From IMG/VR virus record IMGVR_UViG_3300045988_115450, positions 1-64,000 of that record: a DNA stretch of 64,000 nt; one strand, given 5' to 3'. A program made the position numbers and the translations under genes. Source of the stretch: a virus. The notes below the pieces were generated by a model that was not told the origin of the DNA, searched no databases, and saw nothing but the letters and a program-made list of their open reading frames with translations. This document shows, piece by piece, positions 4,231 through 60,107 of this stretch. Each line of letters begins with the position of its first letter. Within the stretch, counting starts at the first letter, position 1.

Positions 4231-4238
4231 ATTCCTCC

Positions 4239-6659: not shown

Positions 6660-7361
6660 ACGCAAAGTTTTATGCGTGGTAGTAGTAATCACGTCTGCAA
6701 GCCCGAACGGAGATACATGCGCGCCGCCGACAATCAGCCCGGCGATATGTGCCATATCCACCATAAAGATGGGATGGTAATCAGGATCAACAGACATTTC
6801 GATGTTAATGATTTTTCTAATCAATCCAAACTTAATTTCTCTTGAGTAAGAACTTGCACCAGCTAGGATTAGCTTAGGCTTGTAAGTTCTTATTTTTTTG
6901 CTTAGGTCGTAATAGTCAAGAATTCCATCCTCATCCAACCCATAGAAAACCGGATTGTAAAGCTTGCCGGAAATACTGGCCGGAGAAAAGTGTGACAGAT
7001 GCCCACCACAATCCAGTGACATACTCAAGACCGTATCACCTGGATTGAGCAGCGCGTAATAAACCGCTTCGTTTGCCTGGGTGCCGGAGTGCGGCTGGAC
7101 GTTCACAAAGTAGTCTGTCTTGAAAGCCTCCTGCCATTTCTTTTGGCAGTAAAGCTCAAGCTCGTCCACAAGTTCACACCCACCATAATACCGGTGGCCG
7201 GGATACCCCTCGGCGTACTTGTTAGTAAGGCAGGAACCAACCGCTCTCATCACATCTTCTGAGCAGAAGTTCTCCGACGCAATTAGGTTGATCTGGTCTT
7301 CTTGTCTTTGCCGTTCTTTTTCAATAAGATCAAATACTCTTTTCGTTGCTATACACCTCAC
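6660..7361 (-). CDS. glyA: Serine hydroxymethyltransferase, exon 1
   Basis: LIASENF, YAEGYPGHRYYGG and TTTTHKTLR (PLP-lysine motif) at the exon end. Confidence 0.85.
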
Positions 7362-13310: not shown

Positions 13311-14266
13311 AACTGGTTTCCACTTCTTGATTGCAGCGTATTGAGGTTATGGTACATGCCTTCAGCCGCTTGCATGGTTTCACGTTCCGTCATCTTCAAA
13401 GCATACCGATATACCTTGTCGTTTTTCTTCCAGAACGGATCGTCAATACTCCTATCTTTATCCGAGTCTTTCATAGAGAAGATCTTTGAATTAGTATCAT
13501 CGCACAACCATTCAAGCCCATCCCTGTAGTGTTTCCAAAAACTCTTTCTTACATATGGAACCATTGTCCAGTCGATATGGCTCGCAGAGACACCACCATA
13601 CTGCTGGAGACTCTGCAGCTGGAAGATGACAGCAACTAACTGGAATGCCGTCCCCACAGAACCAGCAGAACGAATATCGGTTTGCCTTGTATCAAATCCA
13701 TTTTCCAGTAATTTATCAAAAGGAATTGTGAGACAGTTGTGACTACCCACCGCATAGCTTGATAGGTCATGGATATAGATCTCGTTGTTCAAATGATTAT
13801 TTCTCGCCATCTCAGACATGCAATAATCCAGCGCGTATTGCTTCATAACGACAGCATTTGCCTCGCCCATGCGTCCGCCAAATGATCTTTCGTCAACATT
13901 TGCGTTCTGGTTCTGCACGTTACTTGCCATAAGCTTCTCAGATACGGCTTTAATTAGGTCGCTACCACGCTCTCTAGCTTTCGTCCGCTCATTTCTATAC
14001 AGGATGTACGCTTTTGCCACATCTTTTCTGTCAGATTCCATAAGTTTGGCTTCAACAATATCTTGAATTTCCTCAACAGACTTGCTTTTCTTCATCTCAG
14101 CAGTCACGGCGACCGCAATTTCCTTTGCAACAGCTGCACACTGCCCATTTTCTTCCCCATCGACGCTTACAAACGCCTTCTTCACCGCATCTTCTATCTT
14201 TTTAGGGGAAAATTTCTCTAACCGACCGTCTCTTTTGATTACAAATAGCTCGATAATCAACCACAA
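13311..14266 (-). CDS. nrdD: Anaerobic ribonucleoside-triphosphate reductase, exon 1
   Basis: ATP-cone VIKRDGRLEKFSPKKIEDAV. The start is probably a TTG near 14260-14266. Confidence 0.8.
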
Positions 14267-14802
14267 CCTTCCATAATCTCACTTGCGACCCAATCCGCTT
14301 CAGATCTTAGGCTTTCAAGCGTCAAATTTTCAACCACATAGTCAAAATCATAGTCGTCAAGCTCATTTTCTGATTTATGCCTACGCCAAAACGCCGTTTC
14401 ATCACCGCAGTCCATTCTCTCAACACGCACGGTCACGGTTTTGAACGCCGCTTTCACTTTTTCTACCTCATTTTTGAACCGCGCGTCGGGAATCAGCACG
14501 ATATCCCACAGATACCCGATGGAATGTAGGGTATCTACCACAAAGTTCACAAAAAAATCCTCATTGTTTGCTCTAAATGTATCCCCTGTCACTTGAAGAA
14601 GCTCTCTGCCGCAAGAATCCTTCTTGCTATCCCAACTGAAGTAACTGCGGAGAATATATTTTAAAGAATCGGCATAATGAGTTGTGCAAACCTTCTTCCC
14701 ATACGCCTGTTCAAGCTCATCCGTCAGCATTCCAGCAAATGTATCCTTACCAGAACCAGCTTTCCCTGAAATCAGGACAACCAAGGGGCTTTGACTCTTC
14801 AT
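14257..14802 (-). CDS. Deoxynucleoside monophosphate kinase-like P-loop kinase
   Basis: Walker A ISGKAGSGKDT. Size and context match phage dNMP kinases. Confidence 0.65.
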   Translation of the reverse strand: MKSQSPLVVLISGKAGSGKDTFAGMLTDELEQAYGKKVCTTHYADSLKYILRSYFSWDSKKDSCGRELLQVTGDTFRANNEDFFVNFVVDTLHSIGYLWDIVLIPDARFKNEVEKVKAAFKTVTVRVERMDCGDETAFWRRHKSENELDDYDFDYVVENLTLESLRSEADWVASEIMEGCG

Positions 14803-16596: not shown

Positions 16597-17580
16597 CGTT
16601 TTATTATGTGCTATGTATCTCTTTCATCTTAATCGCATCTTCGAACGGGATGCCTCGACGGATTCTAGCTCTTAACGTCGTGTATTTTATTCCCGTTCTT
16701 CTGGCCCATTCTGCCATGGTTAATGTTTCGCCGTTGTAAGTAAACAGTTTATTGCTTGATTGGTTATTGCATTGTGATGTATGGTTAGACCACCTACAAT
16801 TCGACGGGCAGTAATCTTTTGAGTTATCTATCCTGTCAATTGTACATTCTTGTGGGGCCGCGTACTCGTTATATCCATTCTCGATTGCCCACTCTGAAAA
16901 CGCCGTAAAATCGTTTCGCCATTCTTCGCATACCGAAATGCCTTTCCCGCCATAATACTTATAGTTTTCAGAATTCTTATTGTAACAACGGTTTTTAATA
17001 CCAGCCCACACACGATACAGTCTTGTTTTCGACGCTTTATGTGTCGTCATTCTTTCTCTAACTAGCTCTCTTTGAAGACACCCGCATGAACGAGTGTCTC
17101 CGGTAATTAGGTCACGGCTTGACACTACCTTTTCTTTGCCACAGTCGCATCGGCAACGCCACGTTGCGTTTTTTGCCTTATCGCTACCAGCTCTATCGAC
17201 TATCAACAGTCTTCCAAACTGTTGCCCTTTTAATTGATACATACATTCACCTCCTTCATAATTTATTTACATAGCACTTAGTTCGCTAAACTATCCTCTA
17301 CCATTTCGATAGAGCGTAGACTATATCTTCATCCGTTTTATCCGGATGCCCACCGCTTCGAACCGCCGATCGCTTGCGGTCCTACTTGCATACGCAATAG
17401 TCGTTGAACCTTTCTCTGTTCGAGACTTGGCTGCTGATTGCCCAATCTACATTCTTTTCAAACCATCACGCTTATCTTTGTTTCAAAATTACGTTGTGGC
17501 GAATATAGCTCTAAGGGGTTTCCAGCAATTCAATGGGTTTGCAAGCGCATATTACTATGCACCGGGACTATCTCTAATCC
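16597..17580 (-). mobile_element. Group I-type intron (984 nt) in dnaE, carrying an HNH endonuclease
   Basis: Exon 1 ends ...GACAATAAT (U). The intron ends ...AAAACG (G). It is homologous to the glyA intron over several blocks. Confidence 0.65.
16604..17242 (-). CDS. Intron-encoded HNH homing endonuclease
   Basis: FGRLLIV..WRCRCDCG, DRIDNSKDYCPSNCRW and a C-terminal HTH-like tail. Paralog of 5707-6264. Confidence 0.85.
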   Translation of the reverse strand: MYQLKGQQFGRLLIVDRAGSDKAKNATWRCRCDCGKEKVVSSRDLITGDTRSCGCLQRELVRERMTTHKASKTRLYRVWAGIKNRCYNKNSENYKYYGGKGISVCEEWRNDFTAFSEWAIENGYNEYAAPQECTIDRIDNSKDYCPSNCRWSNHTSQCNNQSSNKLFTYNGETLTMAEWARRTGIKYTTLRARIRRGIPFEDAIKMKEIHST

Positions 17581-19527
17581 ATTATTGTCCGCAAGCAACT
17601 CGTCAATCATTGGCGACGGGTTATGATGTGGAACTCTACTTATCAAATCATTTCTATACGACGCGCCAGACGGGCGAATACACGCAGTCACCAACGACAT
17701 ATCAAAGATTGACTTCGTGTTGAAGTCCTTTAGCATCTTTCCTGCAAAAGGAGATTCCATCTGAAAGATGCCGATATTGGAAACCATCATGTCTTCCCAG
17801 ACCTTTTGGTCATCCCAATCAATTTCGTGCGACTTTGGGTAGGGGATGTTCGCCAGCTTACAGGCATCACGGATGATCTGTAGTGTGTTCAGAACGAGCA
17901 TGTCATACTTAACAAGAGACACTTCATGGATTTCTTCCATGTCAATTTGTAGAACGACGCCGCTATCCTTGTGGTGAAAGACACCGTAATTGTCATCCAG
18001 CGTAACCGGGCTAATCACGATACCAGCCGGGTGTACAGATTGAGATACTCTTGTGTTCAGGAAACCATCAAAATAATAAAAGACTTCCTTATATTTTTGC
18101 TTACACGCCTCTGCGTCTTTCCCATAATCTGCTTTAATCTTTGCTACCAAACTTACTTGGTATGGATTCTCGCCTTTGTCTGCTTCTGGATGTTGCTCTG
18201 CCCATTTATGTCTAAACCCGCGCACAATCTCTTCGATAGTCGCCAGGTCTTTTAATGTGCCGCAAGATGGAACGAAAGCAGTCTTTTGTTGCCCGAACCG
18301 TTCTATAATGTAGTTGAAGATTTTGGGCCGGTCGTCTTCAATAACGTCTGTGTCGATATCCCCCACTTCAATTCGATCCTCATTGCAAAAGCGACTAAAC
18401 ACTGTGTGCCATGTTTCTGAATTAACATCTGTGATGTCTGTTATATAAGCGACTCTTGACCCAGCCACACTGCCACGACCAGGACCTGTTATAATCCCAT
18501 TTTCATGACACCATGTAAGAATCTCACTCATAGATTGCATGAACCCGCACATCCCAAGTTTTGTGAAGACTCTAACCTCTTCTTTAATTGCGTCTCGGAA
18601 CGCTTGCTCTTGCTCTCTTGGGATGATTCCGGCCTCTAACTTTGCTTCTAGCTTTTCGTTAATATTCTGGATAAATTTTTCTCTATCTTCTTCTGCAGAC
18701 CCATAAAGGATTGGGTATTTCAAAGAAGTATCTAATTCAAACTCCTCAACCTGATTTGCCATCAAGACTGTATTGTCTATCGCGGCCTGCCATGCTTCTT
18801 CTGGGATAGCGTCCTGCTTTCTAAATGCTTCTTCCAATTCCTCACGCGACTTATACGTCAGGTCAAAATCATCTTCCGTGTCATAATGCTTGCTCTTTGC
18901 ATAAGCAAGTAATGACCGGCACTCAGCGTAGTATTGATTGATACTATGTGTATCTGTCGCTGCAATCAAAGGAATACCATACCTCTGGGATAGCGCCGCC
19001 AGATGCCTGTTGTAGACAATCTGATCCTCGCAGTCATTCGGTTGAATCTCAAGATAGTCGTACTTCTTTACGAGCTTCTCGTAGTACGGATGGCTTACGT
19101 CCAGCTTGTTTAGTGGTGAAGCCAAACAAGCGGACGTTTTGATAATATTCGGAGAGATATTCAGAAACTCATCAAACGAAAGTCGCCCGACGTAGTATTT
19201 ATGTTCTTCATCCGTTGACATACTAAGCAACTTATTAAGTTCCAAAAACCCTTGTCGGTTCTTCGCTATCAGAATCGTATGATAGTTATCTCTCACTTTC
19301 TCATGTAGAGATTCCGTCAAATAAATTTCCACGCCATGTAGGTATTTAATTCCCGCTTCATCGCAGGCCATCTTTTTAGCAACCCACCCACGGGTGTTGC
19401 CATGCTCGGTAAAACAAATAGCTTTTTGTCCGAGCTGCTTTGCCTTTTCTATGTAGAGGTTAAAATCTGTCGTCGAGTCCAACAGCGAATAGTCGCTGTG
19501 AACATGATACGCAACATAATTGTCCAA
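17581..19527 (-). CDS. dnaE: DNA polymerase III alpha-type polymerase, exon 1 (PHP + palm)
   Basis: PHP start YVAYHVHSDYSLLDS and catalytic region GDIDTD. Confidence 0.8.
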
Positions 19528-24848: not shown

Positions 24849-24925
24849 ATTTCACCTCATCTCATTTTTTGCGCTGGCTGCGTTGCAAAATAACCTTATA
24901 TTTTTTAACCGCTCAGCGTGATTAT

Positions 24926-24954
24926 ATTATATAGCTTTATTTTTCAAATGTCTA
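24926..24954 (-). promoter_or_regulatory. Sigma-70-type promoter TAGACA-17-TATAAT
   Basis: Minus strand reads TAGACATTTGAAAAATAAAGCTATATAAT. Same family as 53389-53417 and 63140-63168. Confidence 0.7.
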
Positions 24955-24962
24955 CCCCTTTT

Positions 24963-24989
24963 CGCGAAACTCGTCTGACGAGTTTCGCG
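24963..24989. promoter_or_regulatory. 27-nt perfect palindrome CGCGAAACTCGTC-T-GACGAGTTTCGCG just upstream of the -35
   Basis: Identical copy at 53426-53452, in the same position relative to its promoter. Confidence 0.65.
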
Positions 24990-36419: not shown

Positions 36420-37667
36420 TTATTCGCTTGCCTTGAAATTGTATACAGGCTTGATGATGTTCGCGACCTCTACGGTGTCCGCAATATTGGCAATGATTTC
36501 CTCCATCGTCTTGTAAGCCATCGGACTTTCATCAATGGTGGAACGGCTGACAGATGTGGTGAAGATACCCTTCATGGAATCCTCATACTCCTCGAGAGAA
36601 ACCAGCTCTTTCGCCTTACTGCGGCTCATTACTCGACCAGCACCATGAGGAGCTGAACAGTTCCAATCATCATTACCCTTGCCGATACCGATGATACAAC
36701 CATCACGCATATTGATAGGAATGAGGAGCTTTTCACCAGCTTTCGCAGAGATAGCCCCCTTGCGAACCATATTCGTTCCAAACTCAATGTAGTTGTGAAC
36801 GGTCTCGAACATCGGCAAATCCCAGTAGGCGATGTCACTTCCGAACAAACTGCTGACGATTCGATTTGCGATTTCATATCGGTTGGTTGCCGCAAAATGC
36901 TGACACGCTTTCATGTCGTGAAGATAATCTTCCCGGTGCTTTCCTGTGAGGTAGCACAGTTCCTTCGGAATCCCGAGAGGGTTCGGAGAGAACTTTCTAT
37001 GAAGCTCGGCAATCGCTTTCTGAATTTCCTTTTTGCGCCCCTGCGCCTTGTAATCAACAATCAGTTTCTCTTGTATAGCAATGAGTTCGTCCTTACCTTG
37101 CATAGTCTCAACGGCAAGGTTCTGATAGTATTCGGCAACCTGTTTTCCCAAATTGCGGCTACCAGTATGAATCACAAGGTATTTTACCCCTTCGGAATCA
37201 GTATCAATCTCGATGAAATGGTTTCCACCCCCGAGAGAACCGATGGAGCGAACCAGTCGTTCCGGGCCTTTGAGTGCCTTATAGCACCGAATATATTCAA
37301 TTACCTCGGTAGGGTAGATAGCCGTCTCGTTTACTTCACGACCACTTGGGACGTTCTCCCGGATAGCCTTGTCGAGATAATCGAAGTCAATGTCAATCTT
37401 ACCCAGTTCCACGGTCAGCATACCGCAACCAATGTCAACGCCAACGATGTTCGGAATGACCTTATCCCCCAAATCAGCCGTAAAGCCAACGACACAACCA
37501 GCCCCAGCATGAACATCGGGCATGATACGAACCTTGCAATCTGCGAAAGCTGGTTGTTTGACAAGGGTATAAATCTGATTCAGAGCCGTAGGCTCGATGT
37601 TATCAGTAAAAATCTTTAAGTCGCTCATTACACCACCATCACAATCCATGTTAAAATAATCTGACAA
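36420..37667 (-). CDS. rtcB: RtcB 3'-phosphate RNA ligase
   Basis: MPDVHAGAGC, GGGNHFIE, HTGSRNLG and APHGAGR motifs. Confidence 0.9.
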   Translation of the reverse strand: MSDYFNMDCDGGVMSDLKIFTDNIEPTALNQIYTLVKQPAFADCKVRIMPDVHAGAGCVVGFTADLGDKVIPNIVGVDIGCGMLTVELGKIDIDFDYLDKAIRENVPSGREVNETAIYPTEVIEYIRCYKALKGPERLVRSIGSLGGGNHFIEIDTDSEGVKYLVIHTGSRNLGKQVAEYYQNLAVETMQGKDELIAIQEKLIVDYKAQGRKKEIQKAIAELHRKFSPNPLGIPKELCYLTGKHREDYLHDMKACQHFAATNRYEIANRIVSSLFGSDIAYWDLPMFETVHNYIEFGTNMVRKGAISAKAGEKLLIPINMRDGCIIGIGKGNDDWNCSAPHGAGRVMSRSKAKELVSLEEYEDSMKGIFTTSVSRSTIDESPMAYKTMEEIIANIADTVEVANIIKPVYNFKASE

Positions 37668-41162: not shown

Positions 41163-41402
41163 TTACTCATTACCCTTCTTGTCTTTCTGCTCGCCGCCAT
41201 TTTCCTTCACACAAATCGGAAGCCGCCGAACATGGTAGTCCTTTCTTTCTCTTACCACGTTATACTTCTCACAGGTGTGTGTCGGGTATGGATGAGTCCC
41301 AGGGAGTCCGTACATGGCAGCGAGAGAGCTAGAGATACCAGCTCTGTACTTAGAGAATCTACACTCATTACACAATACTGTTTTAGTTTTCATATATGAC
41401 AC
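41163..41402 (-). CDS. Cys-rich small protein immediately downstream of the RT
   Basis: CNEC...HTCEK...C. There is a 9-nt gap after the RT stop. Confidence 0.45.
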   Translation of the reverse strand: MSYMKTKTVLCNECRFSKYRAGISSSLAAMYGLPGTHPYPTHTCEKYNVVRERKDYHVRRLPICVKENGGEQKDKKGNE

Positions 41403-41410
41403 CTCGTCCT

Positions 41411-42577
41411 TTAGTTTTTGAGATCCTTCTTCATCGTGGCTTCAATATCAAAGCCAAACTTCTGACTATAGCGAGTGATAACTCCATCAATACTTCCTCT
41501 GTTAACCATTCGATAGTAGCTCATAAGACCGAGCACATATTGCAGTTGCTCAAGAGGCCAATAAGTTCCGCTCTTTCTGTCCTTCGCGTAATTGAAAAGC
41601 ATCGCCTCGAAGTTGCGCTTCTTCTTATACCCAATCGTGATCTGGTTGTCCTTGTTGATCATCACACCGAGTACCCAATTCTTATGATACGAGGGGCCGT
41701 AATGAGTTTTCTCATCTTTGATGAGATAACTGGCCCCGAAAAGTCTAAACAGATTTTCAATCTTTCTGATAATGAAGCTCTTATCAAACTCAATACCACA
41801 GCTGATGTTCATATCATCAGCATATCTGGTATACGCGAACCTTCTACCCTTTTCATCAGGGTTGTTTTCCGGGTTCTGCAGGCTACGCAGAAACTTACTG
41901 AACTCAAAATCAAACGGAATCATAATCAGATTGGTCAGCATCGGGCTGATCGGCGTTCCCATAGGTAGACCTCCATCCAGGAAGCAAAGCGACAGAGCTT
42001 TTCTAAGCTCTTCTCTCCCGCTTTTGCACTCCATAATGAGACAGAACGGGTAAATCATAGACAGCGCGTTCCATACAAACTCCGGAGTGGTATTAGGAAA
42101 GAAACCGCTGATGTCAGTCTTTAAATACCACTTGCTCTTATTCCACTGATGGACTTTTGCGGCGTCTACACTACTTCTGTTTTTGACATAAGCGTATGCA
42201 GCGGCATGGCTGCTCGCATAAAACTCAGATTCTAACAGCAGTTTTAGCTCTCGCAGACAATTCATCAGTTCGTCGTCCGGCGCGTTAATCTCTCTCATGC
42301 CGCCGCTCTTTTTCGGGATAAAAAACTTATGGTAATGTGTATGAAGATCGCTTTCAAGCAGTTCCTGATGCTTTTTGTTAAATGCTCTCAGTAGTTCAAT
42401 CTTTTTCCCCGTGTCAAACCCTGCCAGGATTCTCTCGGGCAGTCTCTCATATGCAACTGTTCTAGTATATAGAGATCTCGATTCCCTCACATGTTTATCT
42501 TGAAGCAGCGCAGACATAATATCCTCTAAAGAAATCTGCTTATACGGCTCTGTAATTCTTGCTGTTACATAAATCAT
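41411..42577 (-). CDS. Reverse transcriptase, retron-type
   Basis: KKSGGMREINAP (motifs 1-2), YAYVKNRS, LKTDISGFFPN, GLPMGTPISPMLTN, YTRYADDMNIS (YADD), then NWVLGVMINKDNQITIG (retron VTG-like region) and LGLMSYYRMVN. Confidence 0.85.
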   Translation of the reverse strand: MIYVTARITEPYKQISLEDIMSALLQDKHVRESRSLYTRTVAYERLPERILAGFDTGKKIELLRAFNKKHQELLESDLHTHYHKFFIPKKSGGMREINAPDDELMNCLRELKLLLESEFYASSHAAAYAYVKNRSSVDAAKVHQWNKSKWYLKTDISGFFPNTTPEFVWNALSMIYPFCLIMECKSGREELRKALSLCFLDGGLPMGTPISPMLTNLIMIPFDFEFSKFLRSLQNPENNPDEKGRRFAYTRYADDMNISCGIEFDKSFIIRKIENLFRLFGASYLIKDEKTHYGPSYHKNWVLGVMINKDNQITIGYKKKRNFEAMLFNYAKDRKSGTYWPLEQLQYVLGLMSYYRMVNRGSIDGVITRYSQKFGFDIEATMKKDLKN

Positions 42578-42594
42578 ATTATTCTCCTTGCTTT

Positions 42595-42935
42595 TATCTG
42601 AAACTATATATGGATTTGGATGTCAGTACGAGATGCTCATCGCGGAGCTTGTCGTCGTCTGAGACGGTGAAATCCCTGACTTGGCGTTTATTGTTTGCCG
42701 GATACCCCTGCTGGTGGCGGATGTTGACCCTGTCGAACGAATATCCTTCTGGTTTTTCCTGTTGTTCGGGCGCTGCTTCTCATCAGAGAAGATGCCACCG
42801 GGGTGTTAAGCCTTCTTGGAGGGCACCAAGCATTGGTCTGCTATCGCACGCAGCGGGGTTCCTCTTTCGGACGATGTGCCACTCTTCCGTTCCGGTAAGA
42901 GTTTCTATTTTTTTAAATAGAAAGTGCTTTCAGAT
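42595..42935 (-). ncRNA. Structured RNA copy A (about 341 nt) directly 5' of the RT; retron msr/msd-like candidate
   Basis: 9-bp closing helix (42595-42603 / 42927-42935). On the minus strand this is followed by G, hairpin 42901-42923 and hairpin 42881-42900. Homologous to 48537-48883. The only ORF here is a junk-like antisense one. Confidence 0.65.
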
Positions 42936-43037
42936 ATTTAGATTGAATTGGTTGTTAGCAGGCGTGCCATTCCCCTGCATCTCTTTAGCCATTAAGGCGC
43001 GTGGCGACACGAAATTTCCACCTCAAACAACCAATAT

Positions 43038-43706
43038 TTAATATGCTTCCATAGTAAAATCAAAGGCGTCGATCAAAACTATCTTCTTGATCGAACGCCC
43101 ATTCACAAAATTCATGAAGTTTGCTACTGCACAAGAGCAAATCATCCGCACAGAAGGAGCGATACTAAGCTCCAGGTTACATGCAGATCGAGGAGTTTCA
43201 GCCAGAGCTTCCTCTTGAGTAAACTGCATGGAGTTAATCAGATTTTCAACCATCGCACTAGAACTCCAGTCAGCCGCAAAGTGTTGCGCGTCCGTCAGCC
43301 GAAGTCTGGTATCAAACACAGCTTTGATATACGGGTTTCTAGCATTTTCTTCGCAAATTTTTCTGCGGAGATCAATGTTGTCCACCATAAGGAAGACATA
43401 GCCGGACAGACGCTGGTTGGTATACCCCTCCTGAACTACTTCAATACCATTTGCATCAGGATTGATACTCAACATCATATCTTTCACGGCTTCAGCTTTA
43501 TTTCTACCGATGTCGCTATCATTGAACATCTGATTCGCGATATTGTGCGACTCAACCTTGTCAAAATCGTACAGAGTGACCTTCTCAAGCCCAGCTCTTG
43601 CCAACAATTCGGCTACAGTGGAACCGGACGCACCACAACCGATGATATGTACTCTTTCTTTAACCTTCGTGGGATTAAAGAACTCAATACTCTTCGATAA
43701 ATTCAT
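43038..43706 (-). CDS. Minimal ThiF/MoeB/E1-like adenylyltransferase
   Basis: HIIGCGASGSTVAELLARAGLEKVTLYDFDKVESHNIANQMF..DIGRNKAEA (Rossmann GxGxxG plus the E1 DxD..N..RQ-like region). Confidence 0.8.
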   Translation of the reverse strand: MNLSKSIEFFNPTKVKERVHIIGCGASGSTVAELLARAGLEKVTLYDFDKVESHNIANQMFNDSDIGRNKAEAVKDMMLSINPDANGIEVVQEGYTNQRLSGYVFLMVDNIDLRRKICEENARNPYIKAVFDTRLRLTDAQHFAADWSSSAMVENLINSMQFTQEEALAETPRSACNLELSIAPSVRMICSCAVANFMNFVNGRSIKKIVLIDAFDFTMEAY

Positions 43707-43718
43707 CTTTATACCTCC

Positions 43719-43997
43719 TTATAGCATTAAACAATTCAAAAATACATCACTATCGACTTTACTTTCAATCGGCTCAAACATCCAAGAAGCCCAAGCAACA
43801 AATCTTAATTTGCCTCTTTCTTCAATGCAAATACGTTCAACTTGAATGCCGTTAATCAAGGATGTCAATGAGCGCACTGTTATGATCTTACCGCAATAGC
43901 GCGTTTTATCCCCTTCAAATATCCCGTGATCATTTTTAGAAAGAATCGCCGTTCCACTACCTGTATCTACGGAAAACAGATCAGGGTCAGACATCAT
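43719..43997 (-). CDS. Tail-family paralog P1 (divergent), C-terminus ...FLNCLML
   Basis: Shares the C-terminal tail with P2-P5. A 16-aa N-terminal remnant ORF (MKLEDMYVGQKVRVRS) lies just upstream at 44004-44054. Confidence 0.5.
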   Translation of the reverse strand: MMSDPDLFSVDTGSGTAILSKNDHGIFEGDKTRYCGKIITVRSLTSLINGIQVERICIEERGKLRFVAWASWMFEPIESKVDSDVFLNCLML

Positions 43998-44061
43998 GTC
44001 TTCCTAACTCCTCACCCTGACCTTCTGCCCAACATACATATCTTCAAGTTTCATACGTCAC

Positions 44062-44394
44062 CTACAACAACAAACAGTTCATAAAAACCTGCTCATCAAT
44101 AGATTGCTTTAACCGCAACACACTTTTATAGAAAGACATCTCTTTTTTGCTAACCCTTACCCTGTACCAACCGCCAAGTTCATACTCAACGATCTCGCCG
44201 CCGTCTCTTATAAACTCTCTGAGGCAAGGATCGCCCTCCGCGTACATCACATCGTCGGCGTATATAAATCTTTCGTTTGTGATGATGTCTACGCTCTGCG
44301 ACACAGCCCCATTCGGAAATACCGCCCGTAAGTTATCATTAAATTCATCCCACGTTTTTGGAATAAACTCAACCCGCTGCCCAGGTCTAAACAT
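44062..44394 (-). CDS. Tail-family paralog P2, C-terminus ...FMNCLLL
   Basis: MFRPGQRVEF..WDEF...GGWYRV...FYKSVL...DEQVFMNCLLL. Confidence 0.6.
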   Translation of the reverse strand: MFRPGQRVEFIPKTWDEFNDNLRAVFPNGAVSQSVDIITNERFIYADDVMYAEGDPCLREFIRDGGEIVEYELGGWYRVRVSKKEMSFYKSVLRLKQSIDEQVFMNCLLL

Positions 44395-44403
44395 TATATC
44401 ACC

Positions 44404-44745
44404 TCACAATAATAAGCAATTTATGAACAATTTTTCATCAATTGACCTCATGTCTTCTTTCAGACACAACACGCTTTCGTGAAATTTCAGTTTTACTCCA
44501 TTTATATTCACCATATACCAACCAGTAGCATAGTACTTGATAATCTCACCTCCATTTATTAGAAGCTCGTTAAACCAAGAATCGCCTTCCCCATAAAGCA
44601 CCCCTGCAACCAATATCATTTCTCTATGAGTAGTTGAGAATTCATCTAATATCATATCTCTCGCAAACAACTCCATTAAAGCATCCCGAAATTCATCCCA
44701 TGACTTTGGGGCAAGCGTAACTTTCTGTCCAAGTTCAAACATCAT
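44404..44745 (-). CDS. Tail-family paralog P3, C-terminus ...FINCLLL
   Basis: MMFELGQKVTL..WDEF...TGWYMV...FHESVL...DEKLFINCLLL. Confidence 0.6.
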   Translation of the reverse strand: MMFELGQKVTLAPKSWDEFRDALMELFARDMILDEFSTTHREMILVAGVLYGEGDSWFNELLINGGEIIKYYATGWYMVNINGVKLKFHESVLCLKEDMRSIDEKLFINCLLL

Positions 44746-44752
44746 ATTACCT

Positions 44753-45082
44753 CTATAGCAGCAAACAATTCATAAGTACCTCTTCGTCAACATATGCTTC
44801 TTCCATCGACCGTAGCATCGTCTCATAGAACCACGCTCTTTCTCCGCCAAAGTCTACAATGTACCAACCACACTCGAAGTCTAATTCAATCACGCCACTC
44901 ATCCTGCGTAACTTATAAAAATCGGGAGCGCTATATCCTGCTGCACTAGCTGCAAGATACCCAGTGGTATCACAGCTCGTAAACCTTTTTGCGCTGCGAG
45001 GAAGATGCTTTAGGTAAGCGCTGCAAAACTCATCCCAGCTCCTCAATGCTATCCTGACTCGTTGTCCGATCTCGAACATCAT
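44753..45082 (-). CDS. Tail-family paralog P4, C-terminus ...LMNCLLL
   Basis: Start reassigned to MMFEIGQRVRI, preceded by RBS GAGGAG. CGWYIV...FYETML...DEEVLMNCLLL. Confidence 0.6.
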   Translation of the reverse strand: MMFEIGQRVRIALRSWDEFCSAYLKHLPRSAKRFTSCDTTGYLAASAAGYSAPDFYKLRRMSGVIELDFECGWYIVDFGGERAWFYETMLRSMEEAYVDEEVLMNCLLL

Positions 45083-45092
45083 ATCAACTCCT

Positions 45093-45437
45093 CTATAACA
45101 GCAGGCAATCCATAAGTGTCTTTTCGTCAACACTTTTTTCTTTTAATTGACACGGCGCTGTTTCGCCCGGCCCACCCACCAAACACTCATCTCTTACTTC
45201 GCCAAAGTCAACGCGCCAAATCCAATAGTCATCCGGTTCCAGATAAATTGTCGCTCCGTATTTATCTGGAGCATTAAAATTGTCACCTTCAATCATTTCG
45301 CATCCATCATCGACGCATTCTTGAAACACTGAATGAAACCTACGTTTCACGTGTTCCACCGCACTCTCCAAATTCCAATAAACACCGGATAAATCAATAC
45401 CCTGGTCTGTTTCTGTTATCACACAATATACCTTCAT
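45093..45437 (-). CDS. Tail-family paralog P5 (divergent body), C-terminus ...LMDCLLL
   Basis: Start reassigned to MKVYCVI, preceded by RBS AAAGGAGAAG. The tail is VDEKTLMDCLLL. Confidence 0.55.
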   Translation of the reverse strand: MKVYCVITETDQGIDLSGVYWNLESAVEHVKRRFHSVFQECVDDGCEMIEGDNFNAPDKYGATIYLEPDDYWIWRVDFGEVRDECLVGGPGETAPCQLKEKSVDEKTLMDCLLL

Positions 45438-45611
45438 ACCGGTCTTCTCCTTTCTTATGTACCTCTGAACAGCTAACCAGCTGTTTAAGTTCAAAAGTTT
45501 TCTGCTCTGGGAGTAGGAAAACTTTTGAAGCGACACAGCCATTTGTTACTCCCTCGTTCCGACAAGAGTGATATGTAATTTAACATATCTGTACAGGCAC
45601 ATATGTTTTTT

Positions 45612-46298
45612 TTACTTAATTAACATCTTACCGTCACGCCAATCGGGCCGCTCATCAATAATTTTATCTGCGTCCTCCATGAATTCTTCAAGCTCAACCG
45701 CGGCGTTCATAATCCACTCGATGCCATCCTGTACATCACGCACGTCCACCTTCTCAAACCGGTCAATGTTATCGAAAAACCATCTGCACAAATCATATAC
45801 AGCGGGGTTCCATCGTTCCACTGCGAGTTCCACATTGTCGCTTTCGTATAGGATGCCTTCTCTAACATCATAAACCTGTGAAGATATGTAGCCTTTCTTA
45901 TTGAAAATCTGAAAGACGTAGAAATCATCAACGTCTGTCAGCAAATCTGCTCTATACTTTATATCCGTAGAAGATGGACTGACACCCATGTTCACATGAG
46001 AATGCCCGTACAACCGAACCTTATTGAATATCTCCGTGTTAAGAGAATCCTGCCAGTTCACATAGTCCGCATCTTCAGGTTCGGTGCTTGCCGACGTGAC
46101 CTTCTGAGGGAATACCAAGACGTCCTCCACGATAAACTCAGCTGGATTTTCCAACCTTCTTACAACTCCGTGCCATCCAACCTCCAGATTCCTATTCATA
46201 ACAAGCAAACACGTCTTCATCCATGCCTTCTTACTGTATACGATTTTGCACGGATTTGTCGCGGCCAACAAATCCGTTGCATTAGTTGCCTTATTCAT
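45612..46298 (-). CDS. JAB/MPN (JAMM) metallopeptidase
   Basis: Exact JAMM signature HxHx7SxxD (GHSHVNMGVSPSSTD), with an upstream Glu (LEVGWHG). Confidence 0.8.
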   Translation of the reverse strand: MNKATNATDLLAATNPCKIVYSKKAWMKTCLLVMNRNLEVGWHGVVRRLENPAEFIVEDVLVFPQKVTSASTEPEDADYVNWQDSLNTEIFNKVRLYGHSHVNMGVSPSSTDIKYRADLLTDVDDFYVFQIFNKKGYISSQVYDVREGILYESDNVELAVERWNPAVYDLCRWFFDNIDRFEKVDVRDVQDGIEWIMNAAVELEEFMEDADKIIDERPDWRDGKMLIK

Positions 46299-48113: not shown

Positions 48114-48503
48114 TTAGCCAGCTACTACGATCTTGGAACTGACCCGTGCCATCATAACGTCGATCTCTTCCAGCGCTTCGCGCACCTGGGCTTCAATCTT
48201 TTCTACCTTCTCGATAACAGAAGCATATCTCTCGGCAACAACCTCACGTACGGAACGGTCAGCTTCGGTAATAAGACTCACAGTTACGACCGCACGACCA
48301 GAGCCATCACAAGACTCAGCCTCATAGATAATACCGGTCGGTGCTACTACGCCTCTCTCGCCAGCGAGAGTGTAAAACAGTGCGTTGCCATCTTCGTCCA
48401 GCAGTTGCACAGACTTAGGCCGGTACAGAGCTGCGCGATTGATTTCTTCAAGAGTGAAAGCACTCTTGAGTGTTACTGCGTTACCACACACAATAATTTC
48501 CAT
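48114..48503 (-). CDS. 129-aa protein ending ...KIVVAG; first gene downstream of RNA copy B
   Basis: ORF preceded by RBS AAAGGAGAAG. C-terminal Gly. Confidence 0.5.
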   Translation of the reverse strand: MEIIVCGNAVTLKSAFTLEEINRAALYRPKSVQLLDEDGNALFYTLAGERGVVAPTGIIYEAESCDGSGRAVVTVSLITEADRSVREVVAERYASVIEKVEKIEAQVREALEEIDVMMARVSSKIVVAG

Positions 48504-48536
48504 ATTCTTCTCCTTTTCATATGTCTAATTATGTAT

Positions 48537-48883
48537 TATAAAGTGATTCTATATATGGAATGATAGACCTAACCCGTGCGTTAGTACGCTGACGGGCTTG
48601 GTTATCTGAGGTACTGTGTGATCGACGTCGCTCCAACTCCGCATCGCTTTGGCGTTTGATGCCTTACGCTGTAACGGTGGTAGGCAAGTTGTGCGGCTTT
48701 CTTTATATGCTTCGCTTAGTAATCTTAGCCTTCTTGTCGCATCCATGACGCCGAGAGGTTTCTGGTCGAGAGCCATCGAGGTTGGTGCAACCTTTGCGAT
48801 GCTTCCCACACCTTCGGACGATATGTTACTCTCCCATTCTGGCAAGAGCCTCTGTGAATTTCAGAGTTTGCAATCACTTTATA
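48537..48883 (-). ncRNA. Structured RNA copy B (about 347 nt), a diverged paralog of copy A
   Basis: 12-bp closing helix (48537-48548 / 48872-48883) at the equivalent position but with a different sequence. It is followed by G and then two hairpins. Shared blocks are CCATATATAG, CGTCCGAA, CTCTTRCCRGAAYGGRAGAG and AAACGCCAA. Confidence 0.65.
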
Positions 48884-48944
48884 AATACATTTCTAATACG
48901 GTTAAAAAAATCAGATAAAAGAATTATTTGGACTAAATGCTCAC

Positions 48945-49825: not shown

Positions 49826-49902
49826 TGGTGGTTCCTGCCCGGCTCGAACGGGCGACCATCCAGTTATGAGCTGGACGCGCTAACCAACTGCGCTAAGGAA
49901 CC
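49826..49902 (-). tRNA. tRNA-Met/Ile2 (anticodon CAT), CCA encoded
   Basis: Hand-folded cloverleaf: GGTTCCT/AGGAACC acceptor, TCCAG-CTCATAA-CTGGA, GCCCG-TTCGAGC-CGGGC. Confidence 0.85.
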
Positions 49903-49978
49903 AGGTACGTTTAAAGCCGCTGAATTTATCAGCGGCTTTAAACTGTTAATGAAAGCAAGTGTCCGTATAAAACGAACG

Positions 49979-50053
49979 TGGCAGCGCCGGACTGAGATCG
50001 AACAGTCTTCCACGGAGTCAAAGTCCGTTGCATTACCGTTATGCTACGGCGCT
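49979..50053 (-). tRNA. tRNA-Gln (TTG), CCA encoded
   Basis: AGCGCCG/CGGCGCT acceptor and ACGGA-CTTTGAC-TCCGT anticodon arm. Confidence 0.8.
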
Positions 50054-50164
50054 ATATAAATCAAGCAGAGCAGAGCAGAGTTTAAAGCCATTCCAGGCTA
50101 TGTAAAGAAAGGAGGTGGTTTATCAACAATAACAGGTAGGAGAATCATTTTCTGTTGCTTGATA

Positions 50165-50239
50165 TGGGGTAGGCGACGAGTGCCGATCTCGCGTTTCCGG
50201 TTTGGAAGACCGGTGTTCTAGCCGTTGAACTACGCCTAC
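50165..50239 (-). tRNA. tRNA-Gly (TCC), CCA encoded, atypical T-loop
   Basis: GTAGGCG/CGCCTAC acceptor and CCGGT-CTTCCAA-ACCGG. The T-loop reads ATCGGCA instead of TTCRANY. Confidence 0.7.
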
Positions 50240-50269
50240 ATTTTTGCGGTTCCGCAAACCGCATTTTTT

Positions 50270-50899
50270 TTAATTCATATATAAATCATAATAACTTTGT
50301 TTTCTTCTTGGTTTCAAATCTGGATTTTTTAAACGCCTTTTGATGAACTCAACTGTATTATCCAGCCCATAGTTCCTGACGTATGTATTGATCCTGTTTG
50401 CTCCCAAACCTAAAGTTTTAGCCCAGTCCTTCCCAGTATGTATCGTTCCGTCAACATCAATAAGCGAAGTTGTAGACTTGTATTTCGAATTATCTGCCAA
50501 TGTTACCCATCTGCAATTATCAGGAGAATAATCCCCGTCCCAATCAATTCTATCAATAGTCAAACCATCATCGTACCCGTTAGTTAATGACCAACTCTCA
50601 AATAATTCTGGATTGCGCATCCAATCATCACAAACCTTAACACCCTTAGCGCCATACCATCTGTAGCTCTTATTACTCTTATCATAGCACCTAGCTTTCA
50701 TATCGCTAAAAATTCTCCGGAGCTTGTCGTCACTCCATGAAGCATCATAATTTATATAACCCCCGCTTCTTCCGATATGTCTACAAGCTTTCGCCTGCTC
50801 AATATGCCTTTTCTGTTTGTTCGTTTCAAACCCACACTCAGCACATCTCACATGGTATAATCTATGCCCGTCCCTATGCCTGAAATCACACTCATACAA
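50270..50899 (-). CDS. Free-standing HNH homing endonuclease inside the tRNA cluster
   Basis: DRIDWDGDYSPDNCRWVT..DN and a C-terminal HTH-like tail. Same family as the two intron HNH genes. Confidence 0.8.
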   Translation of the reverse strand: MYECDFRHRDGHRLYHVRCAECGFETNKQKRHIEQAKACRHIGRSGGYINYDASWSDDKLRRIFSDMKARCYDKSNKSYRWYGAKGVKVCDDWMRNPELFESWSLTNGYDDGLTIDRIDWDGDYSPDNCRWVTLADNSKYKSTTSLIDVDGTIHTGKDWAKTLGLGANRINTYVRNYGLDNTVEFIKRRLKNPDLKPRRKQSYYDLYMN

Positions 50900-51047
50900 G
50901 ACATCGAAAATACCTATCCTAGTACCAACAATATTCTCTTTTTCCAGAATATCACCATCTTTCTGCGTGTTGCTAAATAATAATCCGATGAGAGTGCTGC
51001 CCTCTCGCCTGCGTTGTTCACTGTACTACTGTTATACTAATCGGATG

Positions 51048-51128
51048 TACGGGCGACAAGATTTGAACTTGCAAGCCTTACGGCACCGGGGCCTAAACCC
51101 GGCGTGTATACCGTTCCACCACGCCCGC
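51048..51128 (-). tRNA. tRNA-Leu (TAG), long variable arm
   Basis: GCGGGCG/CGCCCGT acceptor and CCGGG-TTTAGGC-CCCGG. Confidence 0.75.
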
Positions 51129-51210
51129 ATGGCACCACTAAGTCATGGTCGGCTGCGCATTTATCCTTTTTTGAATCGTGGTAGATGATTTTGCTTCGTA
51201 CAACCACGCA

Positions 51211-51285
51211 TGGACTGAGTGGAGAATTTTGAAATCTCGACCTCTGGTTCCCAAAACCAGCGTTCTGCCTCTGAACTACACCCAG
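51211..51285 (-). tRNA. tRNA-Pro (TGG), CCA encoded
   Basis: CTGGGTG/CACTCAG acceptor and CTGGT-TTTGGGA-ACCAG. Confidence 0.75.
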
Positions 51286-51288
51286 ATA

Positions 51289-51363
51289 TGGAGGCCGATG
51301 CGAGTTCGAACTCAGCGTCTGTGGGTTACAAAGCCACTGTTTTACCACTTAAACTAATCGGCC
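51289..51363 (-). tRNA. tRNA-Thr (TGT), CCA encoded
   Basis: GGCCGAT/ATCGGCC acceptor. Anticodon loop TTTGTAA, with a C:C at the loop-closing pair. Confidence 0.7.
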
Positions 51364-51513
51364 ACGCACCCCGTTTTGCGGGGTGGCTATGTAAGGGAAT
51401 CAAAAAGGGGAACTCCTGTCTCTTCCAGGATGCCAACACACTACTACGGACTGCCAGAGGCAAACCGCCACTTTTCAGGTGTCATAGTCCGCAAACTATG
51501 GGCTTTTCTTTAG

Positions 51514-51595
51514 TGCGGGATAAGAGACTTGAACTCTTACGTCTATCGACATCGAGACTTAAACACGAGGTGTCTACCGATTCCACCAATCCCGC
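51514..51595 (-). tRNA. tRNA-Leu (TAA), long variable arm
   Basis: GCGGGAT/ATCCCGC acceptor and anticodon loop TTTAAGT. Confidence 0.75.
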
Positions 51596-51948
51596 ATATT
51601 GAACTTGCTACAACCCAGCCTGGTGGTTGACCCGTGGGCGTTGATAACTGACCCAAACCATTAACCCAGGATTTTGTAAAACTTTAACCGTTAACCTTTG
51701 ATTCTTGAACTTTAATCTTCTGAAGATCTTTGAGCCTTGAATTTTGAAATTTTAACTTTGAAGTTTGAGCTTTACAGCAACATTTCTTCTATAAGAAATT
51801 AGATTAACAGTCCAATCTTTTTGTAAGCGCAAAATTTCAAGTTTTGCTTTGTAGTTGGCACATATTTGTTCATTTTTACATCGAACCAAGTGCCGTCAGC
51901 ACGATGGGTTACCGTTTTAGGTTTTCGGGTTGCAGCAAGTTGCTTATT

Positions 51949-52602
51949 TTAGTATTCTACGGTGATTGTAGTGGTCGCATTGGACACAGATAGCTGAGAA
52001 TCTACATCCGCAGTAAACGTGTCAATCCAATCGCTCAAAACCTTGATTTCATTACCAATGTCAAGCGGATCAACGAGTTCATACGTATTGTTGGCAATAT
52101 ACTCTTCTCTCAACCGCTTAACGACCTCAGAATCCTTGGTTGTCTTGGCCTCTTTAGGCTGGCACTGGAGGAAATTCATGATATACTGTTCAGCTTTCGC
52201 TTCAATCCACTCGCCTTCATGTTTGGAAACCTCAGCACGGGCTCTTTCGTACTGCCGGACCATTACATCAAGCAAATCTTTCTTAGCCATGATTCCATGG
52301 CTTTTCATTTCGATGGCTTCGGCTACGGTGTAAGGTTCGCCGCCAATTACCACCGGGGTTTTGGCATTGGAGAGCACAACTGCTCTCTTAATAGCCGTCC
52401 GACGAGCAATCAAGTCCGTAACAGACTGATAATCAGACTTCATATCCTTCTTGAGGGTTTCGACCAGCACACCGCCGATCTTTTTGTCGCTCACTTTCTT
52501 ACTGGCAACGAAGGTTTTACCAGAAGTAGCATTGAAAATTCTAGCGTCCAAAATTTTCAGCTCTGCAAGAGCTTTATGGACGGTCATAGTTTCTTTGTTC
52601 AT
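51949..52602 (-). CDS. Hypothetical 217-aa protein embedded in the tRNA region
   Basis: ORF preceded by RBS GAGGAAC. No motif recognised. Confidence 0.5.
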   Translation of the reverse strand: MNKETMTVHKALAELKILDARIFNATSGKTFVASKKVSDKKIGGVLVETLKKDMKSDYQSVTDLIARRTAIKRAVVLSNAKTPVVIGGEPYTVAEAIEMKSHGIMAKKDLLDVMVRQYERARAEVSKHEGEWIEAKAEQYIMNFLQCQPKEAKTTKDSEVVKRLREEYIANNTYELVDPLDIGNEIKVLSDWIDTFTADVDSQLSVSNATTTITVEY

Positions 52603-52653
52603 ATTAGTTCCTCACTTTCTTATTTATGGAATTAGATTTTTATCGTGGTATCG

Positions 52654-52744
52654 TGGTCTCCCTGGGTGAATTCGAATCACCATATACCTTATGAGGGCCT
52701 TCCAATTATAAGTTGGAAGCTATAACCAATTTAGCTACAGGGAG
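52654..52744 (-). tRNA. Type II-like tRNA (19-nt variable region) with anticodon TAT, CCA encoded
   Basis: CTCCCTG/CAGGGAG acceptor, GCTA/TAGC D stem, TCCAA-CTTATAA-TTGGA, variable AGGCCCTCATAAGGTATAT, GGTGA-TTCGAAT-TCACC, discriminator A. Confidence 0.7.
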
Positions 52745-52933
52745 ATATTTGTTCAGCAACCACAACCGCCCTATCAATCAGTCGGCCTAACCAAAAGATA
52801 GGGCTGGATTGTGTTGCCCAACCGTGCCTGAGAGCTTTCTTGCCTAGCCTGTACTTAACCAGGTGTCTGCAATCAATGTTTAGGTTGCTGGTTTTGACCC
52901 TCGCTCTAGAACCAGTTAACTAGAGCGATTGAG

Positions 52934-53019
52934 AGCTACTAGACGGAATTGCACCGCCTTGAAGTCATAAGTGAGGCGCGAGAGGAGTTACGCCCACCTC
53001 TTCACCTGCTTGGAGTAGC
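52934..53019 (-). other. tRNA-like element / degenerate tRNA (no canonical anticodon arm)
   Basis: Acceptor-like GCTACT/AGTAGC and T-arm-like GGCGG-TGCAATT-CCGTC. The central stem AGAGG/CCTCT carries an 11-nt loop. Confidence 0.3.
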
Positions 53020-53024
53020 ATATG

Positions 53025-53100
53025 TGGCACCAGCACTAAGATTCGAACTTAGAACTACGGTTTTGGAGACCGCCGTTTTTCCACTTAAAACTATGCTGGT
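53025..53100 (-). tRNA. tRNA-Trp (CCA), CCA encoded
   Basis: ACCAGCA/TGCTGGT acceptor and GCGGT-CTCCAAA-ACCGT. Confidence 0.8.
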
Positions 53101-53336: not shown

Positions 53337-53388
53337 ATGCACCCCATGCAATTTAATCTTGTGTTTTTTAACCGCTCACCGTGGTTAT

Positions 53389-53417
53389 ATTATATAAGAT
53401 TATTTTTCAAACGTCAA
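53389..53417 (-). promoter_or_regulatory. Sigma-70 consensus promoter TTGACG-17-TATAAT driving the tRNA cluster
   Basis: Minus strand reads TTGACGTTTGAAAAATAATCTTATATAAT. Confidence 0.75.
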
Positions 53418-53425
53418 CCCTTTTC

Positions 53426-53452
53426 CGCGAAACTCGTCTGACGAGTTTCGCG
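53426..53452. promoter_or_regulatory. Second identical copy of the 27-nt palindrome CGCGAAACTCGTCTGACGAGTTTCGCG
   Basis: Exact repeat of 24963-24989, in the same position relative to the -35. Confidence 0.65.
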
Positions 53453-59994: not shown

Positions 59995-60107
59995 GCAGGC
60001 ATAGACAGAATCCACCTATGTTATCCCTGCGACCTCGCAGGCCAGGGCGATCCCAGCCTACGAACGCTCCCGGCCTAACGCCTGTTTATAGTCGCCGGGA
60101 CGACTCT

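Follow-up and report, generated by a model that had tools for sequence, protein, structure and literature searches.

Retrons are bacterial anti-phage systems that consist of one reverse transcriptase (RT), one non-coding RNA (ncRNA) and one effector. Their transcripts are characterized by pairing a1/a2 repeats that bear 'two opposing G residues' (Mestre et al., PMC7736814). An element of comparable anatomy is described here from a phage genome. It occupies positions 42595-42936 on the minus strand of a 64,000-nt stretch of DNA (positions 1 to 64,000 of IMG/VR virus record IMGVR_UViG_3300045988_115450; hereafter the window) and lies directly upstream of an RT gene. An earlier note, made from the sequence of the stretch, had described it as a structured RNA of 341 nt. 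The element is real, with a length of 342 nt, and it is complete, but structure is limited to about 100 of its nucleotides, namely a 5' module of ~70 nt and a closing helix. Judged from sequence comparisons, it is a member of a conserved RNA family built like the primer-template RNA of retrons, and it is probably one of several template RNAs that belong to a phage-borne, multi-template retroelement of the retron type.

The element, hereafter copy A, opens with an a2-like 5' arm, TATCTGAAA (42928-42936; minus strand, as for all of its parts), which is the exact complement of 42595-42603, where an a1-like 3' arm, TTTCAGATA, completes a closing helix of 9 bp. This helix and its 3' arm had been correctly reported in the earlier note, whereas the 5' arm had been placed one base off, at 42935-42927. 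Directly after the 5' arm stands an unpaired G (42927), as had also been stated, which by analogy with retrons is the candidate residue for priming, or branching, through its 2'-OH. The two hairpins said to follow the G are both found in the minus-strand sequence. Hairpin P1, TTTCTATTT/AAATAGAAA, which is evident from sequence and fold, pairs 42923-42915 with 42910-42902 in 9 bp around an AAAA loop, and hairpin P2, CTCTT-A-CCG-GAA-CGG-AAGAG (42882-42901), is made of 5 bp, a 1-nt bulge, 3 bp and a GAA loop. P2 is followed by a single-stranded tail, UGGCACAUCGUCCGAA (42866-42881), and by a variable body (42614-42865), which is unstructured, compositionally biased and allelic and is presumed to be the template. 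A conserved motif, CCATATATAG / CCAUAUAUAG (42604-42613), precedes the 3' arm, is identical in copy A and in a second element of the window, copy B, and is presumed to be the template start. The motif had been recognized in the earlier note, but the distance from the element to the RT had been overestimated: 17 nt, rather than about 25, separate the 3' end of copy A from the ATG at 42577, with a ribosome-binding site (RBS), AAGGAG, at 42590-42585.

Copy A folds 3.7 standard deviations better than its shuffles (z = -3.7) and copy B 3.2 standard deviations better (z = -3.2). At the gathering thresholds of Rfam, nothing overlaps either copy, including msr, RT-associated motifs, ROOL, GOLLD, HEARO and other families, and at E values up to 10 the overlaps are at chance level, as for TUSC7 at 42500-42605 (20.6 bits against a gathering threshold of 65, E = 0.99). 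Thus, no unrelated known RNA family was matched in Rfam, and the ROOL- or GOLLD-like RNA that had been proposed as an alternative finds no match there.

The order of parts throughout the family is arm, G, P1, P2, a tail with the consensus GUAACAAAUUGUC, a body of ~230 nt, ..UAG and arm. Of 71 distinct viral loci, 57 have an exact inverted repeat (8-12 bp) with its G upstream of the RT, against 2.4 in dinucleotide shuffles; the repeat spans 270-360 nt and ends 8-45 nt, typically 17-30 nt, before the RT start. Searches with a minimum arm length of 8 bp recovered closing helices of 8-16 bp that bracket 216-402 bp. The arms differ by clade, with 38 distinct inner (8-nt) arm sequences among 70 non-redundant complete elements, and an inner core, TG[TC]AA[CT], is semi-conserved in many clades. 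The G after the 5' arm recurs in nearly all homologues, even when it was not imposed by the search. Furthermore, the base before the 3' arm, likewise not imposed, is G in 67 of the 70 elements and is preceded by A, at -2, in 56 of them, giving the ..UAG ending.

P1 lies 3-5 nt from the G and forms a stable hairpin in 90% of the 70 elements, compared with 7% of shuffles, through 64 different sequences; both hairpins are present in 21 of 23 representatives. Because alignment of the whole 5' module with MAFFT misplaced P1 and the arms, P2 was tested on a clean sub-alignment (A6), and the arms and P1 were tested by anchored scripts with shuffle controls. In the clean alignment of 22 sequences, 95% of cells are paired and seven of the eight pairs have changed on both sides, for a total of 51 double-sided changes, a level reached by none of 500 shuffles, while slid controls gave 50% or less. 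In 105 distinct sequences from independent loci of metagenome-assembled genomes (MAGs), 98% of cells are paired, with 206 double-sided changes, in an alignment that was fitted to the model. Two pattern matches (L006 and L008) were discarded as chance occurrences inside coding sequence. Covariation in the wider alignment is therefore strong in P1 and P2, and the closing helix covaries as well. Together with the opposing Gs, the two msr-like hairpins and an RT of the retron clade, this agrees with the retron-like closing-helix geometry on which the earlier note had been built.

The RT gene (41411-42577, minus strand) encodes a protein of 388 amino acids (aa) with a Pfam RVT_1 domain and a YADD motif. 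Its best PADLOC matches are RT_II-A (5e-41) and RT_I-A (1e-38), and its best NCBIfam match is retron_St85_RT, with 163 bits against a family cutoff of 235. A search of PDB with a profile of 20 members of the RT family returned retron RTs in all of the top 12 places, from Ec83 (1e-33) to Ec86 (1e-13); group II intron RTs were matched at 4e-12 and Drt2 at 7e-5. The score of the RT with the Drt2 model is 26.5 bits, where the cutoff is 390. Retron RTs bear two signature motifs, NAXXH in region X and VTG in region Y, of which H and G are the most conserved residues (PMC7736814). In an alignment with the Ec83 RT, NAKIH corresponds to AAKVH and HVTG to WVLG, such that N and T are replaced, and the corresponding H143 and G304 are invariant across the family. 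From the profile matches, it was concluded that the RT belongs to the retron clade. The family comprises 2122 proteins at E <= 1e-10, with 260 IMG/VR stretches and 71 genome-collection loci; all 71 of the latter are on MAG contigs of animal-gut origin, most of which had been assigned to bins of Oscillospiraceae, Clostridia or Lachnospiraceae.

The existence of a second copy had been implied in the earlier note, and copy B was indeed located at 48536-48884 (minus strand). It is a complete element of 349 nt with a 13-bp closing helix, TTATAAAGTGATT/AATCACTTTATAA, and a G at 48871. The P1 sequences of copies A and B are unrelated, and P2 differs by compensatory changes (CCG/CGG to CCA/TGG). The tail, ..CAYATCGTCCGAA, and the motif CCATATATAG are identical in the two, and the ~230 nt between them are unalignable. 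Copy B precedes an open reading frame (ORF) of 129 aa (48114-48503, minus strand), which has no match in Pfam, PHROGs, NCBIfam or PADLOC and which diverges much faster than its neighbours, given an identity of only 53% to its counterpart in L007, the closest relative in which it occurs. A partial or mini element of ~170 nt, copy C, lies at approximately 45440-45610 (minus strand), between an ORF of 228 aa and a small ORF with a likely start at ATG 45437; the ORF of 149 aa listed at 45093-45542 probably starts at this ATG, after copy C. Copy C has a P1-like hairpin, P2 and the tail (the latter two at 45534-45571), a body of ~90 nt and a closing helix of at most 5 bp. A covariance model of P2 and the tail (R1) scores 35.8 bits with copy B (48814-48851), 33.4 with copy A and 25.1 (E = 4e-4) with copy C. 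All three copies are also found in the related phage IMGVR_UViG_3300045988_122191, and their positions are thus conserved among relatives.

Beyond the window, the same model has 106 matches in 43 viral loci and 115 in 71 MAG loci, all of which are co-oriented with the RT; in MAG loci, too, an element precedes the RT. Most loci contain two to four complete elements, each with arms of its own, and up to seven matches to P2 and tail occur in one locus (L026). Elements are often arranged in tandem right after the RT stop codon with no ORF between them, for example at 3669-3952 and 3951-4253 of locus L017, and what follows each element is either an RBS, 15-30 nt on, or another element. Counts of promoters and terminators at the elements equal shuffle expectation. 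P2 and tail are more alike among the copies of one genome (identity 0.74) than between genomes (0.49), and the P2 apical loop is genome-specific and common to the copies within a genome, with outer stems that covary. A shared, genome-specific loop suggests that a single genome-encoded trans factor recognizes all copies, for which the RT is the obvious candidate.

The body has other properties. No consensus fold was found in it among 12 close relatives, and 60-nt windows of the bodies of 65 elements gave mean z values of -0.03 to -0.5, which is no structure beyond that of shuffles. The folds of the putative complementary DNAs (cDNAs) are multi-branched, with no single long hairpin, and have z values of -2.1 for copy A and -1.8 for copy B. 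As the earlier note had maintained, the region has no credible ORF: across 62 homologous elements, no frame is kept open on either strand. An antisense ORF of 160 aa (42559-43041) was rejected as a gene and regarded as incidental on the same grounds. Composition is nonetheless kept by position, with a purine-rich segment at +10 to +20 past P2, followed by one that is rich in G+C and poor in T and then by an A/C-rich one. The first of these segments, ~75% purine, was considered as a polypurine primer for plus-strand synthesis; this was not adopted because the clade of L066 is C-rich there.

Comparison of 12 phages of one clade revealed the extent of body variation. Identity is 94-99% in their ThiF-like and RT genes and 46-63% in the ~230-nt body, which lies between 88 nt at the start of the element and 40 nt at its end that hardly vary at all. 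The variable zone starts ~20-25 nt after P2 and stops 25-40 nt before the 3' arm, and its flanks are 94-100% identical. Body divergence is bimodal, with values of 0.06-0.10 within an allele group, 0.37-0.50 between groups, at differences of 2-6% in flanking genes, and few intermediates (0.24-0.33). At four-fold-degenerate sites of the RT, divergence is 0.07-0.16 in all pairs and is hardly correlated with that of the body (r = 0.17). Changes in the body have a transition/transversion ratio of ~0.8, and they show no adenine-specific or other single-base bias. In its own clade, the body of copy A is 0.98, 0.69 and 0.52 identical to those of three relatives, for which identities of the 5' module are 0.97, 0.96 and 0.89. 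Within the 64-kb window of the ~106-kb genome, 24-mers of bodies A and B in which A (or T, C or G) was left free have no other match, and sensitive blastn of the bodies gave chance matches only, of 14 nt or less. In IMGVR_UViG_3300045988_122191 (L007, minus strand, 14250-14400, joined to L002, 1-110), the body of copy A carries three tandem copies of a hairpin unit of 21-22 nt, CTTCTCTGATGAGAAACAGCC, which is present once in the window (42780-42800 region), indicating that cassettes change by local duplication too. The simplest reading of these patterns is that the bodies are alleles of long standing and strong divergence, exchanged between genomes by recombination through the conserved modules, to which additional mutation may contribute.

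From these features, we infer a mechanism in which the RNAs would be transcribed along with the surrounding minus-strand genes. The single retron-clade RT of the genome would recognize the conserved 5' scaffold, made up of P1, the single-stranded tail and, between them, P2 with the apical loop specific to the genome, and the closing helix would place the 3' end of the element beside the unpaired G (42927 in copy A). The 2'-OH of this G would prime reverse transcription, as it does in retrons. Synthesis would begin at ..UAG/CCAUAUAUAG (42604-42613) and run through the body toward the tail after P2, and its product would be a G/T-rich, RNA-linked single-stranded DNA (ssDNA) of up to ~250 nt. One RT could in this way serve several RNAs, copies A and B and perhaps the mini copy C. 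The body would act as a specificity cassette, of which diverged alleles are reshuffled between otherwise near-identical phages, and such reshuffling might be a mark of selection, diversifying or frequency-dependent, in a conflict between phage and host or between phages. Proteins encoded next to the RT, one E1-like and one JAB-like (described below), are probably partners in the system. A more specific proposal, which is put forward tentatively, is a multi-template retron in which the RT and the E1-like/JAB pair convert the RNA repertoire into long, strain-specific ssDNAs, diversify those RNAs, or both; the cassettes would determine specificity in counter-defence or in competition between phages.

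Several observations weigh against the template reading. Priming and the use of the body as a template are proposed by analogy with retrons. The RT scores below the curated cutoffs of known retron families, and it bears an N-terminal extension of ~65 aa. An msd stem-loop was sought throughout the body, including its 3'-proximal 60-70 nt, and none beyond chance was found. To our knowledge, the longest multicopy single-stranded DNAs (msDNAs) are of ~163 nt, shorter than the product of ~250 nt envisaged here. No known retron effector is adjacent, in that no PADLOC effector model matched the four neighbouring ORFs. Copy C lacks a convincing closing helix, which indicates that P2 and tail can occur without the priming geometry. 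Finally, all copies are intergenic and resemble 5' untranslated regions, with which a regulatory or processing role is compatible too.

Such a role is the substance of the main rival, which is considered unlikely: the element would be a cis-acting leader or RNA-processing element that works independently of the RT, its 5' module binding, or being cleaved by, a phage factor by which downstream genes are regulated at the level of stability, processing or translation. The closing helix would then serve only as insulation, and synteny would account for the proximity of the element to the RT. Every copy (106 viral-locus, 115 MAG-locus and three window matches) is intergenic and co-oriented with transcription, as expected of a leader, and the end of each element 15-30 nt ahead of an RBS, or ahead of another element, the combination of P2 and tail with a poor closing helix in copy C, and the lack of a promoter or terminator excess marking separate transcription units are in line with this view. 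The leader reading does not account for the opposing Gs and the ..UAG at the helix junction, for a ~230-nt, unstructured and hypervariable cargo in which a composition gradient is conserved, for tandem elements that no ORF separates (as in L017) or for a constant element directly before a retron-clade RT. A further idea, also unlikely and ranked behind the leader, extends the template reading rather than excluding it. In this self-diversifying retroelement, the body would be copied with errors and the cDNA would recombine into its own locus, with the conserved 5' and 3' modules as homology arms, in a loop like that of diversity-generating retroelements (DGRs) in which template and target are the same. 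The sharp borders of the variable zone between nearly identical flanks, the excess of transversions, the tandem triplication in the body of one relative and some allele pairs that are two to three times more diverged than neutral sites (0.24-0.33 versus 0.07-0.13) could be accounted for by such a loop. Divergence is mostly bimodal, however, and within an allele group it is 0.06-0.10, compared with 0.07-0.16 at RT four-fold sites, so that the recombination of old alleles is a better fit than continuous hypermutation. Furthermore, neither an adenine-specific nor any other single-base bias was seen, the window has no separate variable repeat, and the RT is not of the DGR clade.

Two other explanations were given far less weight. 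A DRT2-like template, in which rolling-circle reverse transcription yields a concatemeric cDNA encoding a de novo protein, would be consistent with an ncRNA upstream of the RT whose 5' and 3' ends are joined by a helix, and with a T-poor body in which sense-strand stop codons are depleted, but it is very improbable. In most of the 62 elements the body has no stop-free frame on either strand, and the RT falls far short of the Drt2 model cutoff and is much closer in PDB to retron RTs than to Drt2. The broader alternative of a DRT-type template, which the earlier note had raised, was set aside for the same two reasons: the RT is not a DRT, and there is no stop-free template frame. The least probable explanation is a miniature inverted-repeat transposable element (MITE), with the terminal inverted repeats serving as transposase sites and the copies having spread through the genome of the phage. 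Inverted repeats of 8-16 bp (8 bp being the search minimum) that flank 216-402 bp, the presence of several copies per genome and the semi-conserved inner arm core would suit a MITE. Yet all copies are oriented with transcription, the arms differ between copies of one genome and covary as base pairs, the internal hairpins exhibit RNA-type covariation that includes G-U pairs, and copy positions are conserved among relatives. A CRISPR-like array and an omega or guide RNA, which were considered together with the MITE, were rejected in view of orientation, of RNA-type covariation and of the absence of cognate proteins.

The genes around the RT are themselves conserved. A gene for a ThiF, or E1-like, adenylyltransferase (43038-43706, minus strand; Pfam ThiF, 5e-24; PDB relatives MccB, UBA5 and MoeB) lies upstream of the RT, an arrangement found in 80 of 86 loci by tblastn. 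The ORF of 228 aa (45612-46298, minus strand) has no Pfam match and probably encodes a JAB/MPN+ metalloprotease: its JAMM motif, E39...H99-S-H101-x7-S109-x2-D112, is invariant in 27 homologues, although in PDB its profile matches only Rpn11, and weakly (E = 0.22). Of 160 loci, 122 contain a homologue. Thus, a conserved E1-like gene and a probable JAB gene adjoin the RT. Between the two stand five tandem small paralogous ORFs (43719-45437, minus strand) of ~92-126 aa, whose C-termini are conserved (..CLLL); four of the five were scanned and matched no family. In other clades, a gene for a calcineurin-like metallophosphoesterase follows the tandem elements downstream of the RT (L017, 4261-4962; Metallophos, 1e-11). 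It occurs in 37 of 160 loci and is absent from the window. The metallophosphoesterase superfamily includes Dbr1, the 2'-5' debranching enzyme, and by analogy a link of this gene to branched RNA-DNA is conceivable.

A skipping-rope RNA (42951-43031, minus strand; RF02924, 50.3 bits, E = 5e-11) is inserted between the stop codon of the ThiF-like gene and copy A. Because a relative with an RT identity of 90% (L003) has unrelated sequence at this position, it is a separate and dispensable insert; the function of skipping-rope RNA is described as unknown (PMC5737381). The window apparently covers ~60% of its phage genome, which would be roughly 106 kb long, and its closest relatives are IMG/VR contigs of 106-109 kb. 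Nearly all of its long ORFs are on the minus strand, and blastn of 41400-43100 against GenBank phages gave no match. Nine tRNA genes are clustered at 49826-53100 (minus strand) beside the RT region, and a gene for the RNA ligase RtcB (36420-37667, minus strand; Pfam, 3e-59) lies on its other side, a pairing that could be the answer of the phage to tRNA-cleaving defences. Two group I introns and a pistol ribozyme were identified by Rfam scan (6392-6683, 17296-17622 and 60028-60105, minus strand), and repeated segments (repeat families D4, D6 and D8) are common to both introns. A direct repeat of 106 nt (24884-24989 and 53347-53452, plus strand) is 87% identical between copies that are 28 kb apart.

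The combination of RT and ncRNA has no description in the full-text literature that was searched, outside of which most subscription journals fall, such that earlier publication is possible. The locus places the primer-template geometry and the RT clade of retrons inside phage genomes. Several RNAs per RT are unusual, as is a long, unstructured cargo that has been replaced or has diverged strongly among phages with 94-99% identity in the flanking genes. Should these RNAs give rise to cDNA, phages would have recruited retron chemistry, and the question of a variable ssDNA repertoire during infection would arise. The tentative multi-template retron, if correct, would be a first for the offensive or viral use of this chemistry and also for exchangeable, allelic templates in a retron. 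An RT that naturally accepts multiple long, hairpin-free and freely variable templates would also be suited to the production of ssDNA in vivo. Finally, the constant E1-like and JAB-like neighbours hint at an undescribed link between enzymes of ubiquitin-like conjugation and reverse transcription.

Among known systems, retrons are the nearest, and by RT the closest are types I-A and II-A (Ec83, Ec78 and St85/Sen2), which are of the same RT clade. As in retrons, the ncRNA lies directly upstream of the RT on the same strand and has a1/a2-like terminal inverted repeats with opposing Gs at their inner ends, short hairpins of msr type after the G and a conserved presumed template start; P1 and P2 correspond to the one to three short hairpins of an msr. 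In contrast to retrons of bacterial defence islands, the element resides in phage genomes of ~50-180 kb from animal-gut, Clostridia-type MAG bins. Where a retron has one msr-msd per RT, several elements, often in tandem, accompany each phage RT. The presumed template of ~230-250 nt is unstructured, without the long, stable msd stem-loop, and its sequence is a set of hypervariable alleles. The RT differs from those of retrons in an N-terminal extension of ~65 aa and in the degeneracy of its NAXXH and VTG motifs. Its neighbours are E1-like and JAB-like proteins rather than a described effector, and msDNA is only presumed. Because it departs from canonical retrons in three respects, in that it lacks the msd hairpin, has more than one cassette per RT and is not part of a bacterial genome with a known effector, the element was not classed as a member of the retrons.

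With DGRs, the locus has in common that it is phage-borne, that it combines an RT with a non-coding template RNA and that hypervariable sequence with sharp conserved borders is linked to the RT; DGR priming, too, reportedly proceeds from a 2'-OH within the RNA, a finding attributed to Handa et al. in 2018. It differs from DGRs in an RT outside their clade and in having neither a template-repeat/variable-repeat pair within the 64-kb window nor an adenine-specific pattern. Moreover, the variable part is the non-coding RNA itself and not a protein-coding target, and its variation looks allelic rather than continuously generated. Like DRT2, with its de novo 'neo' gene, the locus has an ncRNA upstream of the RT that joins a structured scaffold to a template region, and it is set apart from that system by an RT of another family, the lack of a stop-free frame and a priming geometry that resembles that of retrons.

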